A stretch of DNA of 64,000 bases from a virus: the IMG/VR virus record IMGVR_UViG_3300044648_000427; one strand, given 5' to 3'. Within the stretch, counting starts at the first letter, position 1. Every line of letters starts with the position of its first letter. This document shows positions 3,893 to 22,369 of the stretch, in pieces. Below the pieces are notes generated by a model. That model was not told the origin of the DNA and did not search any database. It was given only the letters and a program-made list of their open reading frames with translations. The position numbers and the translations under genes were made by a program.

Positions 3893-3942
3893 AGGATAAG
3901 AAGAACAAATAAAATTAAAATGAGTAAACGTAATTGGTGATA

Positions 3943-3980
3943 GCGTAGCTGCGGTAATAGCGGTTGTAGCGGACTGGCGG
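3943..3980 (+). repeat. phased GCGG array, locus 1
   Basis: GCGT 3943; GCGG 3951, 3960, 3969, 3977. Confidence 0.75.
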
Positions 3981-4584
3981 AAATGTAATTATTGTAATAA
4001 TTATATAAATCAAATCAATTAATAGATATTATATATTCTATTCATCTATAATTAATATTTTCCATAAATAAAAATAATTTTTTTTGTAAATTTATTTTTC
4101 GCCCTTCCAACTTCCAAAATATTTTTTGTAGTGAATAAAAATATTTTTTCAAAAAAAAATTTTTTTTTATTTTTAAATTTTTCAAATTTTTTTTTCCTCT
4201 CAAGAATTTTTTTCTCAAGAACTTTTTTTTTCACAATATTTTAATTTTTTAAATTTTAAGCTTCAAGGCTACTCTCACAATCTTCAAGAAGATTCCTCCA
4301 GAAGATTGATAGAGAATATTGTTCTATAACATAACTACGTAACATTGTTACGTAATCTAACTATATAACAATATGTTGAATACTATAAGATAAGCTAAGT
4401 GCCAAATCATGAATAAGGAAATTAACAATTCTTATAGTATTCAACATGTAAGATATTATGTTAAATCTATATATAAATGTCTAATTTTATGTATATACAC
4501 GATTTAAATTACATAATGTCATACATATGACAATTTGTAAAGTGATCAGATACATTTATATTACCAACTAACGATCCTAATCTT

Positions 4585-8717: not shown

Positions 8718-9007
8718 GTTAAGAGTAGATTATTCAATCGTGTATATATATGTTTAAAAGCAAAAGCTTAAATACCAGAAAAGAGTATTTGCATTAGTAA
8801 TTGAGGTCTGATATATAAGTGAGTTGGTTGGGTATGTATGTAGGTATAAGGGTAAAATGAAAAACATTAGAGCTTTAACGAATAGCGTTAACGCCTCGCC
8901 AAGATGGCTCGGCTTTTCGTTGTGCGGGGGGAAGTTATCCGTTGATGCGTGGGCTGGGATTGATGGATATTCCTATATATAAATCTTTTCCCACAGGAAA
9001 AGGTTCT

Positions 9008-9210
9008 GCGGAATTGCGGTAGCAACGGCTATAGCGGAACAACGGCACAAGGGTTTAAATACTCTATAATGTATTATATATATCTATTGTTTAACATGTT
9101 ATTAAATAAATCATGTGCGTTATTTATCGCTGTTTGCTCGCCGCAATTCGTCCGCAACTGCCGTTATTCCGCAATTTCCGCTTTTCGCTATTCGTCAATC
9201 CGCCCGCCGC
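9008..9210. repeat. inverted phased (G/A)CGG arrays flanking an AT-rich core, locus 2
   Basis: Plus strand: 9008, 9016, 9025, 9034, 9042; minus strand (CCGY): 9141, 9152, 9161, 9169, 9178, 9200; AT-rich core about 9051-9112. Confidence 0.75.
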
Positions 9211-19051: not shown

Positions 19052-19576
19052 ATGGGTGAAGCGGGAAGACCGACGGCAATTAGTCGTGAAGAAACACTTT
19101 ATAAAATACGTTCGATGAGAATTGAGGGCTTTAATAAACAGCAAATTATTAAGCAATTAGGTATGAGTCCGAATACTTATGATGATTATTTAAATATTAT
19201 TTATGTACAAGACGCTGAGACATTAAGTAAAAAGCGGGAACAGGCGTTAGCTACTGATGTAGAACTATACAAGAATAGGTTGGAAAAGGCTCTTCGTAAC
19301 CTTAATTACCTTTTCGGAGATGCGACAGCTACGGCTAAGGAGAAAGTCGAAATAATAAAAGCTAGCGTTGAGATTGCTGGTAAACTTATGCGTGTGGACT
19401 CTGAGGGAACTGCACTTTTAGAACTTAAGCCCGAATTGCGTCAGATGATTGAGGACGCTAATAGCTTAGTGAGGAACAAAATTGAGATAAACACTTACAA
19501 CATTGGGGAGTTACCTGAAAAAGGAGCTGGCAAGACAATTAAGCTTCAGAAAAAAGATGAAGATCTTTTTGGTTAG
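19052..19576 (+). CDS. terS: probable terminase small subunit
   Basis: GRPT followed by N-terminal HTH, helical body, upstream of terL. Confidence 0.55.
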   Translation: MGEAGRPTAISREETLYKIRSMRIEGFNKQQIIKQLGMSPNTYDDYLNIIYVQDAETLSKKREQALATDVELYKNRLEKALRNLNYLFGDATATAKEKVEIIKASVEIAGKLMRVDSEGTALLELKPELRQMIEDANSLVRNKIEINTYNIGELPEKGAGKTIKLQKKDEDLFG

Positions 19577-19665
19577 ACCAAAAAATTTGGGTAGGCGAAA
19601 AATCGTTTTCCCCTTATAATCCCCTTTCAAAGAAGTCTACCACTGTGGGGGATGTGTTCGTTTTA

Positions 19666-19731
19666 GCGGCGAAGCCGCAAGCGGAAATTGCGGTAGCTGC
19701 GGTAGCAGCGGAAATTACCGTTGAGTAGCGG
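19666..19731 (+). repeat. phased GCGG array, locus 4
   Basis: GCGG at 19666, 19681, 19690, 19699, 19708, 19728. Confidence 0.75.
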
Positions 19732-19732
19732 A

Positions 19733-19800
19733 TGATCAACCATTGAACCTACGGTTCATCCGCTGAGCAAAGTGCGTAGCACGATGCTCAACGTTGATCA
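19733..19800. other. three-way junction / cruciform-forming element
   Basis: TGATCAAC/GTTGATCA encloses TGAACC-TAC-GGTTCA and TGAGCA..GTGC-GTA-GCAC..TGCTCA. Confidence 0.7.
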
Positions 19801-19920
19801 GTACAATAAAGCGAAAGGTTTAAATAGCGGCATAGCGGTATAATATTATACCGGACGTACCGGTCGATAGTGGAGACTATAATATTATTATTATATATAT
19901 AGTCTACCACTAGCGGTGCC

Positions 19921-19946
19921 TTTTTTTTTCTTTTTTCAGTTTTTTT
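19921..19946 (+). terminator. oligo-T terminator-like tract
   Basis: T-runs right after hairpin 19868-19912. Confidence 0.4.
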
Positions 19947-20040
19947 ATCAATTTTTCCCAAACCCCTCTAAAAACACCCAATATCACTAGCGATATCACT
20001 AGCGATACGAAAGTTTAAATACTATGAGCGTTTTTTGGAC

Positions 20041-20283
20041 GAAAGGTTTAAATAGGTAGGTGTTGTAGTAACCTGTTGGATCAAATCTATTTTTTCCACT
20101 TTTTTAGCATTTTTTAACAAAATTTCCGATTCGGAAATATTTTAGCAAAAATGGGGGAAAGGTTTAAATAGGTGGGTGTTGTAGTAACTATTTGCTTCGA
20201 ATCAAAATTTGAAGGGTTTTAGTTTTTTTTAATTTTTTTTTAATTTTCGGGGAAAGGTTTAAATAGGTGGATGTTGTAGTAAC
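20041..20283 (+). repeat. three 32-bp direct repeats GAAAGGTTTAAATAGGTRGRTGTTGTAGTAAC
   Basis: Copies at 20041, 20157, 20252; each carries a BRE/TATA-like AAAGGTTTAAATA. Confidence 0.85.
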
Positions 20284-20477
20284 TAGTTGGCAAAAGTGTT
20301 TTTTCTTTAAGTTATTATTTTTAGTAACAAATAAAATACGTTTTTAAGGGGTCAAATTCGATATGTTTAAATACTACCATGAGAATATAACTAGTTGGAA
20401 CGAATAAAGGGTTATAAAATTGTATTTGACCCGTACGAACCGTAATCCATATATTTTACGATTATTTAATCAACTGT

Positions 20478-20684
20478 ATGAACAAGGAACGGTACTTCAC
20501 CATTCACATCTACGGCCCTGAATCAGATTATATTTACGAACAGGTAACAGGAGTAGACTTTAAAAAATTGGAAGAGGCTCAAAAATGGATCGATAAATAT
20601 CTCCCAAAACACTTAGGTTACAAGATAGTCAAAAGTGAAACCGTAGTCAAGAAGTCTTCTGCTCCACCACACTATTTAACATAG
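20478..20684 (+). CDS. hypothetical protein
   Basis: ORF track. Confidence 0.55.
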   Translation: MNKERYFTIHIYGPESDYIYEQVTGVDFKKLEEAQKWIDKYLPKHLGYKIVKSETVVKKSSAPPHYLT

Positions 20685-20716: not shown

Positions 20717-22369
20717 GTGCCCGAAGAATTCATTATCCCTGAATTAGGTAGAACCCTTAAAGAGAAAAAACAAGAAAAAACAAGAAATGATGCAAGTATT
20801 CTTAAGGGAAAGCCGTTTTGGATTTGGGATAAGAAGGAGCACAAGAAAAAATATAAAGAATTAAATGGTGAATGTTGTTTTAATCATATTGCAGGATTAC
20901 CTGTAAAAAATGGACGAGCAAGACCAATTTATCCATTTCAGAAGCAGATTTATGATCTTACCATGTCGAAGGTAGAAGAGGCAAGAATGTCTGATGAAGA
21001 GCTAGAGAAACTTCATGGAAAGGATTATATAAGACGTTTAGGGGTGTGGATTGAAAAAGCCACTGGTTTGGGGGTAAGTGAATTTTATTTACGTCTTATG
21101 GGATGGTTATGTGTTTATGATGATTATTATAAAGGTTCAGATTTTTGTATTGTAACAGGGCCAAATATTAAGTTAGCTTCAGACCTTATTGATAGATTTA
21201 AGGATGTTTTCTATGAAAATTTGAAATTTAGATTTGATGATAGTAAGTTTGAGGCTACTGTAAATGATGTGCATATTGAAGCTTTTCCTTCCGATAACTT
21301 ATCTGCTCTTAGAGGTCGTCCTGATGTAAAATTTATTCTTCTAGATGAAGCAGATTTCTTTTCTATAGGATCACAAAAACAAGTACGTGCTATAGCAGAA
21401 CGTTACATTGGAAAAAGTAATTCTATCGTAGTTATGGTAAGTACGCCAAATGCTGATACTCCTGATGGACTTTATACAGAAATGAAAGCAGAATTTGATG
21501 AAGCAAGGAAGCGTGGAACTTTACAATCTATTCTTTATGATCCCTTAGAACTTCCCTACACTGTAGGATTAGGAACAATGTTTAGTGAAGCTGAAATGGC
21601 TCAGGCTAAACTTTCACCGTCATTTGAGACTGAGTATAACCTCCAAAGGGGTTTCGGACTTGGTAATTTGTTTATGCCTGAAACAATCAAAAAAATGATC
21701 GATTTGGGTGAAAAACTTGGTGAAGAAAAAATCAATGTAAATAATACTTACGTTGCAGCTCCTAACACATTTGAACTTGTAATGGATTTAAATTCAATGT
21801 ATGCAAAATCCGATATAAAATATGATAAACCATTATTTGTTCCTAAAATTGGCTCTACACGAGTTATGGGTATAGACGGTGCGTTCGGTTCAAGTAAATT
21901 CGCTATTTGCGTGGTGGAATTAGTCCAATTTGAGGGAGAACCGGTGGTAAAAGTACTATATAGTGACGAATTCGAGCGTATTGACTACGATAATGCGTTG
22001 ACTAGATGCGAAAATCTCATAAAATTCTATGGTATTAAACGTGTTTATATTGATTCTGCTAACCCTGAAGTTGTAGGTGGAATCAGAAAGATCTACGGCG
22101 AACAACATGATTGGACATTAGATCGTAGACTACCTTCTAGGTGGTCTGGATTTCCAGTTTCGTTTAATAAGGAAGGCCGCCCCTTATTAGCTAAACTTCA
22201 ACGTATGGGTGAAATGGGTAATTTAGCGGTAAGTCCATATTTTAAGAATTTACTAGTTTATCTAAGAATTGCTCAACATCAATCTTATAACTTGGAGAAA
22301 GTTGGGAAGACGCAACTCGACGAACTTGATGCGTTAAGGTTGGCTTTAAAACACTTTACATTTAGTTAA
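20717..22369 (+). CDS. terL: terminase large subunit
   Basis: KATGLGVSEF Walker A variant, ILLDEADF Walker B, VSTPN, RNase H-like MGID and C-terminal DELDA. Confidence 0.85.
   Translation: MPEEFIIPELGRTLKEKKQEKTRNDASILKGKPFWIWDKKEHKKKYKELNGECCFNHIAGLPVKNGRARPIYPFQKQIYDLTMSKVEEARMSDEELEKLHGKDYIRRLGVWIEKATGLGVSEFYLRLMGWLCVYDDYYKGSDFCIVTGPNIKLASDLIDRFKDVFYENLKFRFDDSKFEATVNDVHIEAFPSDNLSALRGRPDVKFILLDEADFFSIGSQKQVRAIAERYIGKSNSIVVMVSTPNADTPDGLYTEMKAEFDEARKRGTLQSILYDPLELPYTVGLGTMFSEAEMAQAKLSPSFETEYNLQRGFGLGNLFMPETIKKMIDLGEKLGEEKINVNNTYVAAPNTFELVMDLNSMYAKSDIKYDKPLFVPKIGSTRVMGIDGAFGSSKFAICVVELVQFEGEPVVKVLYSDEFERIDYDNALTRCENLIKFYGIKRVYIDSANPEVVGGIRKIYGEQHDWTLDRRLPSRWSGFPVSFNKEGRPLLAKLQRMGEMGNLAVSPYFKNLLVYLRIAQHQSYNLEKVGKTQLDELDALRLALKHFTFS

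Follow-up and report, generated by a model that had tools for sequence, protein, structure and literature searches.

The window analyzed here, a stretch of 64,000 nucleotides (64 kb) with ∼30% G+C, is part of a large tailed archaeal virus whose host is probably a soil member of the Nitrososphaerales. Its genes include those for a family-B DNA polymerase with an intein, ThyX, a portal protein, an endonuclease VII-like protein, thymidylate kinase, Dam, TnpB, a head cement protein, and an M4 peptidase. The gene for the terminase large subunit, terL (20717–22369, + strand), matches phrog_2 at 8.5e-12, and its relatives carry PF17289. The encoded protein is 35% identical to the TerL of the Nitrososphaera viennensis provirus Pro-Nvie1, its sole match among GenBank virus proteins; the promoter array described below is absent from that provirus. 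Closer TerL relatives, at the protein level, are 64–83% identical, and the 174-aa protein introduced below has protein relatives as well. More distant TerL relatives (33–41% identical) come from soil and rhizosphere, and one of them is named Nitrososphaeraceae by one source.

Upstream of terL, a 900-nt non-coding gap (19577–20477) separates the gene for a 174-aa protein (19052–19576, + strand), which has an N-terminal HTH followed by long helices, from ORF68 (20478–20684, + strand), a small conserved gene for which we found no family match. The repeats studied here sit in this gap, with ORF68 directly 3′ of them. A metagenome scan for close relatives yielded a sister strain, represented by contigs L001 (TerL 96% identical) and L003, which differ by 1 base in 1401 and so count as one independent haplotype, together with L002, a 20-kb contig of an 88%-identical relative, which stops at terL. 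Searches of IMG/VR by TerL and by exact patterns gave no further relatives, and none was found by DNA among GenBank phages. Between the window and L001, ORF68 differs at 21 nt and at 4 aa.

The Repeats Are Copies of a Predicted Core Promoter

The 32-mer GAAAGGTTTAAATAGGTRGRTGTTGTAGTAAC is present as three exact copies on the + strand, R1 (20041–20072), R2 (20157–20188), and R3 (20252–20283), at spacings of 116 and 95. When up to three mismatches were allowed, there were still three matches in the 64 kb, against a shuffle expectation of 0.00, so that the repeats reported in a preliminary description of this DNA are real and not due to chance. Similarity between the copies breaks off sharply at both edges, and the 18-nt part 3′ of the TATA box is found at R1, R2, and R3 alone within the window. 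As that description also stated, no ORF follows the repeats: the + strand holds none of at least 30 aa between 19620 and 20420.

The gene-proximal promoters of this virus, as collected in the window, have an nTTAAATA box 28–31 nt before the start codon (mode 30), usually with an A-rich BRE 5′ of the TATA box; at such a distance the promoters are therefore leaderless, with the start site at or near the start codon. The box of the repeat, TTTAAATA, is identical to the one that precedes this virus's genes, and in 3/3 copies the BRE GAAAGG lies directly 5′ of it. The purine-rich BRE on one side and the G/T-rich sequence on the other give the promoters a + direction. At +29 from the TATA start, R1, R2, R3, and a further family member (P5, below) carry TTG(G), a pyrimidine-purine initiator, from which it follows that the 32-mer reaches from the BRE to about −4 and so coincides exactly with a core promoter. 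Judged by its sequence, each 32-mer is a complete copy of an archaeal core promoter, made up of a purine-rich BRE, the TTTAAATA box, and an 18-nt stretch to about −4, and the geometry equals that of the virus's own gene promoters, in agreement with the earlier assignment of the repeat as an archaeal promoter. The TATA box and predicted start are at 20047–20054 and ∼20075–20078 in R1, where the 18-nt spacer is G/T-rich, at 20163–20170 and ∼20194 in R2, and at 20258–20265 and ∼20289 in R3.

The three repeats belong to a row of six BRE/TATA boxes, all on the + strand, starting at 19814, 20009, 20042, 20158, 20253, and 20361, and the partial copies that had been noted around the repeats hold up (19812–19827, with 16/16 of CGAAAGGTTTAAATAG; 20009–20021; 20359–20374). 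A strict motif, A[AT]ANNTTTA[AT]ATA, occurs 15 times on both strands of the window, and 5 of the 15 fall inside 548 nt here (Poisson P ∼9e-9, a post hoc value). P1 (20009–20036, + strand) is a promoter-like box with its TATA at 20014–20021, 33 nt 5′ of the R1 TATA, and a T6 run after it; its predicted start falls within the R1 BRE, an arrangement also present in L001. P5 (20359–20399, + strand; TATA 20366–20373) is a diverged member of the family that shares TAACTAGTTGG, the initiator region, with R3. Given that no run of at least five T lies between P5 and the start of ORF68, P5 is likely the mRNA promoter of ORF68-terL, with a predicted leader of ∼80 nt.

Some further observations concern these promoter sequences. 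The seven nucleotides that directly follow the TATA box read GTAGGTG in R1 and GTGGGTG in R2; both agree with RTDKKKK, the consensus of the eukaryotic BREd (PMC4581360), which we record as a post hoc lead. Elsewhere in the window (29942; 36475, − strand; 47322), apparent GTG or TTG start codons lie exactly 27–30 nt 3′ of a TATA box, GTG for PolB and for a PD-(D/E)XK nuclease and TTG for an RlaP-family protein; such spacing points to leaderless mRNAs that do not begin with AUG, an unusual situation. When 185,579 genomes were scanned for a pair of perfect boxes separated by 80–110 nt, five matches resulted, two of them archaeal (L084 and L085). In these two contigs (L085 3700–3870; L084 3620–3740), an identical promoter 16–22-mer occurs twice, ∼110 nt apart, around a small GC-rich, hairpin-rich segment. 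Both are cellular; in L085 the 16-mer CGAAAGGTTTAAATAG is found twice, and a winged-helix gene lies 40 nt downstream of the second copy. Although it bears the label Binatia bacterium, L085 is probably mis-binned, since the S15 that it encodes is archaeal in type and has its closest named relatives in Woesearchaeota/Nanoarchaeota. We considered mimicry of a host promoter and rejected it, because L085 is a DPANN contig outside the presumed host lineage; from the presence of the same box there it follows no more than that this box is a strong archaeal promoter of a generic kind.

Oligo-T Clusters Follow the Promoters

Each of the three promoters is followed closely by a cluster of T-runs on the + strand. 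After R1 this is a T6-N4-T6-N4-T6 cluster (20090–20115), which begins ∼12–15 nt from the predicted start and which we read as a putative multi-U-tract terminator; after R2 it is T8-AA-T9 (20223–20241), 29 nt from the start; and after R3 there are runs of T6, T5, and T5 (20299–20345), the first of them 10 nt downstream. The density of T-runs of at least six is the maximum of the window here (10 per 500 nt), and the array region has no A-run of at least six, although A-runs outnumber T-runs across the window. All of the array T-runs are on the transcribed-sense strand. Among 18 ordinary gene promoters, a single T5–6 run was seen within 100 nt upstream in 6 and several runs in none.

Two or more tracts of at least four U are the most efficient archaeal terminators and bind aCPSF1 most strongly, and a thaumarchaeal aCPSF1 ortholog is interchangeable with that of a methanogen (PMC8716108). 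Sequences of this form stand after R1, R2, and R3. Promoters that run directly into stop signals could yield only tiny non-coding RNAs, with predicted lengths of 21, 37, and 16 nt for R1, R2, and R3 and of 18, 20, and 30 nt for the L001 counterparts. Termination at a T-run 10–15 nt from the start, with the polymerase barely past the promoter, is putative. Of the three readings put forward in the preliminary description, stacked promoters that produce short T-terminated RNAs fit best, given the core-promoter geometry, the multi-T clusters, and the retention of the arrangement in the sister strain; the second, a TBP/TFB sponge, is neither supported nor contradicted by the sequence evidence, and the third, binding of terminase, is taken up below.

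Several other products of the region were considered and rejected. Structured small RNAs from R1–R3 find no support, as the predicted RNAs fold no better than shuffles (z −0.7 to −1.3) and give no Rfam match at gathering score or at E ≤ 10; no tRNA or tmRNA was found. Translation of micro-ORFs from the TTG at +29 would give frames of 13, 6, and 7 codons, whereas the L001 equivalents have 2 codons or lack a start. For a CRISPR or mini-array the spacers, at 84 and 63 nt, are too irregular, and the repeat has the make-up of a BRE/TATA promoter; there was no Rfam or CRISPR-type match either.

The RNAs could nonetheless matter as products. Abundant, very short, and U-tailed, they might serve as antisense or guide RNAs that evolve fast, or as decoys that draw off aCPSF1/FttA or Sm-like proteins, both of which bind U-tracts. 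Strong consensus promoters would here yield RNAs made mostly of U-tracts, and aCPSF1, which binds best where there are at least two U4-tracts, still binds RNAs of 18–24 nt (PMC8716108). The RNA bodies are, however, unstructured and very short, they are not conserved between strains whose TerL proteins are 96% identical, and they lack an Rfam match, and we regard a role for the RNAs themselves as unlikely.

The spacer before R2 contains the TTTCCGA-T-TCGGAAA hairpin described earlier, a palindrome at 20123–20137. It is strain-specific, its place being taken in the sister strain by another inverted repeat, of 16 nt.

The Row of Units, Not the Repeat, Is Kept in the Sister Strain

The flanks of the array align with L001 at 85–100%, whereas the segment 19925–20440 is only 45–60% identical, with indels of up to ∼240 nt. 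Four-fold degenerate sites of TerL are 81% identical between the window and L001; the array thus diverges faster than neutral point change would allow, which points to turnover by replacement or conversion. Within the array the parts behave differently: the boxes are identical at 36/39 positions, the 18-mers at 24/54 (44%), and the transcribed segments at 37/67, although, measured against the neutral rate, the boxes are only weakly constrained (P = 0.046). The T-run clusters stand at homologous places in L001 with the same 10-nt spacing. L001 has three gene-less units of ∼105 nt, whose three spacers are mutually different; the number and positions of the units are equal in both strains, and no unit of either strain contains an ORF.

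Low identity in the 18-mers while the boxes are kept suggests that the 32-bp repeat is a homogenized state of this strain, and the conserved entity, as judged from the alignment, is the row of predicted promoter-terminator units and not the 32-bp repeat. The preliminary description had counted against its own readings the case in which only one copy is conserved in relatives; a promoter box stands at all three positions in the relative, but conservation does not extend to the 32-bp repeat itself. None of 77 distant terL loci showed a TATA array upstream of terL.

Rapid turnover of the segment raises the alternative that recombination between the repeated promoter boxes has left behind, or shuffled, regulatory cassettes that are empty. 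The array would then have little or no function, and the boxes would persist as the joints of recombination. An identity of 45–60% with large indels, set against 85–100% in the flanks and 81% at neutral sites, is what such shuffling would leave, since an identity so far below that of neutral sites indicates replacement and not point mutation; the marginal constraint on the boxes fits too, as does the resemblance, in promoter plus terminator make-up and hyperplastic setting, to elements described in T4-type phages (PMC2839356; see below). Against it, both strains hold an equal number of gene-less units at the same positions, none with an ORF, the homogenized 32-mers have sharp edges at the limits of the core promoter, which argues for selection on promoter function, and the multi-T clusters are peculiar to the array region and are not generic junctions. 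On balance we think that empty cassettes are a rather unlikely explanation.

Two observations from this comparison stand apart. L001 contains ∼240 nt (1520–1760) that are missing from the window, including TTTCCAGTGGAAA (L001 1538–1550), a sequence that resembles the core of origin-recognition boxes in archaea. Another palindrome, TTTCCGATTCGGAAA, is present in the window ∼190 nt further on.

A Candidate Structured RNA and Conserved Elements Upstream of the Array

The first box of the row, P0 (19812–19929, + strand), is the same BRE/TATA box (TATA 19819–19826) placed before a candidate small RNA of ∼82 nt that has two hairpins, ACCGG-loop-CCGGU and a long AU-rich one, and ends in T9. The predicted fold is markedly stable (dG −26.9, z −4.1; z −4.7 in L001), the region is ∼95% identical to the sister strain, and no Rfam match was found. 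That the same box would drive a conserved structured RNA suggests that it is used for real transcripts.

Between P0 and R1 there is also the tandem repeat noted earlier, confirmed here as two copies of the 12-mer ATATCACTAGCG (19981–20004, + strand), which abuts the P1 BRE on its upstream side. It is 100% conserved in L001 amid diverged, indel-rich flanks, and it is likely a binding site, for now a candidate one, of a conserved factor. The sequence CACTAGCG also forms the end of the P0 RNA hairpin (19906–19915).

Further upstream, a perfect hairpin, TTTTTGGT-TAG-ACCAAAAA (19568–19602), spans the stop codon of the 174-aa gene. L001 has a further copy like it, which points to a terminator or to a gene end that was duplicated. 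An array of GCGG boxes lies at 19666–19731, with similar arrays at 3940–4260 and 9000–9210. The GCGG boxes at 3943–3980 are followed by a stretch very rich in T-runs (4080–4260), and those at 9008–9045 are directly 5′ of another gene-less AAGGGTTTAAATA box (9049) and are mirrored at 9141–9210. GCGG arrays may mark a promoter or regulatory class.

Packaging and Replication as Alternative Roles

The T-tracts of the array are phased at ∼10 nt, with 25/2000 shuffles reaching the observed power (P ∼0.0125). This modestly significant phasing would also suit intrinsically bent DNA of the sort known from packaging sites and origins. In phage lambda, cosB with its R1–R3 boxes and IHF, and in SPP1, pacL and pacR, are terminase sites with repeated boxes and bent DNA. 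The present array resembles them in having three short repeats with bent or bendable spacers beside terminase genes, and it could be a packaging recognition site (pac/cos) in which the repeated boxes and phased T-tract DNA are bound by the small terminase. The array is directly 5′ of terL and 3′ of the 174-aa protein, whose HTH-plus-long-helix form resembles that of a small terminase. The model of this protein (pLDDT 71) shows an HTH plus long helices; Foldseek returned weak rows to the G20c and P74-26 small terminases (E ∼0.5) among TetR rows, VIA-align returned generic helical hairpins only, and there was no Pfam match; the protein may be a small terminase or a regulator. The end of contig L002, 20 nt inside terL (window equivalent 20737) and just past the array position, also suits a packaging site; it may be a repeat-caused assembly break or a real DNA end.

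The comparison between strains speaks against such a site. The 174-aa protein is 94% identical in L001, and its residues 1–47, the HTH half, are 100% identical, while the repeat-specific 18-mer (24/54) is absent there; the earlier suggestion of terminase-binding repeats is therefore disfavored as far as this part of the repeat is concerned. The part common to copies and strains is a generic BRE/TATA box, unlike the boxes of cosB and pacL, and the T-runs are all on the sense strand, which terminators need and bending does not. The 174-aa protein is itself only a putative small terminase, the 77 distant terL loci have no such array, and better-conserved candidate sites lie nearby, namely the tandem 12-mer at 19981–20004 and a GC-rich block at 19640–19800. 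Overall, we consider it quite doubtful that the array is the packaging site.

A replication origin activated by transcription, in which tandem promoters would fire into easily melted AT-rich DNA to prime or open it, was weighed in the same way. Origins of this type include the T7 primary origin (phi1.1A/B) and oriF and oriG of T4. Tandem promoters followed by A/T tracts would suit this role, and GCGG-box arrays and a conserved folded junction are in the neighborhood. However, the cumulative GC skew climbs monotonically through 18–24 kb with no inflection near 20 kb, and its minimum is at 8–10 kb, the site of a better origin-like structure in which inverted GCGG arrays flank an AT-rich core. 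U-tailed RNAs of 16–37 nt would also be poor primers, and no replication initiator gene lies beside the array. An origin at this position thus seems very improbable.

Discussion

The nearest precedent in an archaeal virus is given by the intergenic repeats (IRs) of halovirus HF2, class I of 58 bp and class II of 29 bp, which reporter assays and primer extension have shown to be promoters; 9/9 tested were active, and mutations around the start region abolished the activity (Russ, Pfeiffer and Dyall-Smith 2021, PMC8707807). The likeness is one of make-up, both being repeats of a BRE, a TATA box, and the stretch to the start in a tailed archaeal virus. In HF2 the IRs are scattered, a gene module or long transcript follows each of them, and the sequence is conserved across the genus, whereas the present copies are in tandem at 95–116 nt, are gene-less with no ORF of at least 30 aa after them, are followed by putative terminators, and are unconserved outside the TATA box even in the sister strain; positions and boxes are kept and the 18-mer is not, as judged against a single comparator.

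In logic, the nearest known system by analogy is that of the promoter-early stem-loops (PeSLs) of the T4-type phages phi1 and RB49, which have been proposed to keep early transcription from spilling into virion genes (Arbiol et al. 2010, PMC2839356). Like the present units, judged by their sequence, PeSLs unite a strong promoter of host type with an effective terminator in a short cassette that recurs, and they occupy hyperplastic regions in which close relatives differ; the 45–60% identity with indels of up to ∼240 nt between flanks of 85–100% is of that kind. PeSLs have σ70 promoters and G/C stem-loops and stand nearly always directly before an ORFan. The present units share their form by sequence, with archaeal BRE/TATA boxes and oligo-T instead of stem-loop terminators, and in neither strain does any of them hold or immediately precede a small accessory ORF.

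A third likeness is to archaeal rRNA leaders. PMC4983044 cites tandem rRNA promoters, up to five in Halobacterium cutirubrum and, in Haloferax volcanii, starts 185, 293, and 444 nt 5′ of the 16 S gene. The leaders have several co-oriented promoters ∼100–150 nt apart before one operon, as here, and the upstream promoters feed the same long transcript with no terminators between them. With multi-T clusters between the promoters of the present array, upstream transcripts should mostly end, unlike those of rRNA leaders. By analogy, then, the array is a tandem, gene-less variant that combines features of HF2 IRs, PeSLs, and tandem rRNA promoters.

We put at about an even chance the interpretation that these promoter-terminator micro-units are a boundary or gate before the packaging operon. 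R1–R3 would fire and terminate as gene-less “micro transcription units,” with selection acting on the promoter and terminator activity itself and not on an RNA sequence or a terminase site. The multi-U tracts would keep transcription of the long block of small, co-directional genes further upstream from reading through, and the stacked promoters would hold TBP, TFB, and RNA polymerase loaded at the entry to the packaging operon. The operon would be transcribed from P5, the last and terminator-free member of the family, plus any read-through. The identical 32-mers would reflect strain-specific homogenization, by short-tract conversion or by the spread of one promoter variant, and would suggest that the stretch from −24 to −4 matters for promoter strength or for a strain-specific regulator. 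An insulator alone would need no promoters, however, and a boundary leaves their purpose unexplained; retention of the boxes could instead reflect their use as recombination joints and not a function.

A more specific variant is a termination-control switch for the packaging genes. In lambda, transcription from the late promoter PR′ ends at the terminator tR′, giving the 6S RNA, until it is opened by the Q antiterminator. The present array likewise has strong predicted promoters 5′ of late/packaging genes that would give only short terminated RNAs. In a gate of this form, the stacked strong promoters would idle into the multi-U terminators until read-through into ORF68-terL is allowed, the opener being a viral factor or the conserved two-hairpin P0 RNA upstream. 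Alternatively, in a decoy device, abundant multi-U-tract RNAs and termination events would titrate host aCPSF1/FttA. Lambda has one unit and a known antiterminator, whereas the array has three to five stacked units and no candidate antiterminator, and we know of no established case of antitermination in archaea. A switch of either form appears quite improbable to us.

To our knowledge, almost nothing is known of the timing of gene expression in tailed archaeal viruses. The locus described here offers a row of predicted host-type promoters joined to what, from the sequence, would be the strongest kind of archaeal terminator, gene-less and kept in a sister strain. The array is also a compact, synthesizable object of ∼600 bp on which archaeal promoter strength, early termination, and a possible control of read-through could be tested. 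If the units prove inert, they would document promoter boxes as recombination joints, as in T4-type phages. If they are active, they would put strong promoters and terminators at hand as finished parts for work in AT-rich archaea, and would mean that archaeal tailed viruses use gene-less transcription units as regulatory DNA.
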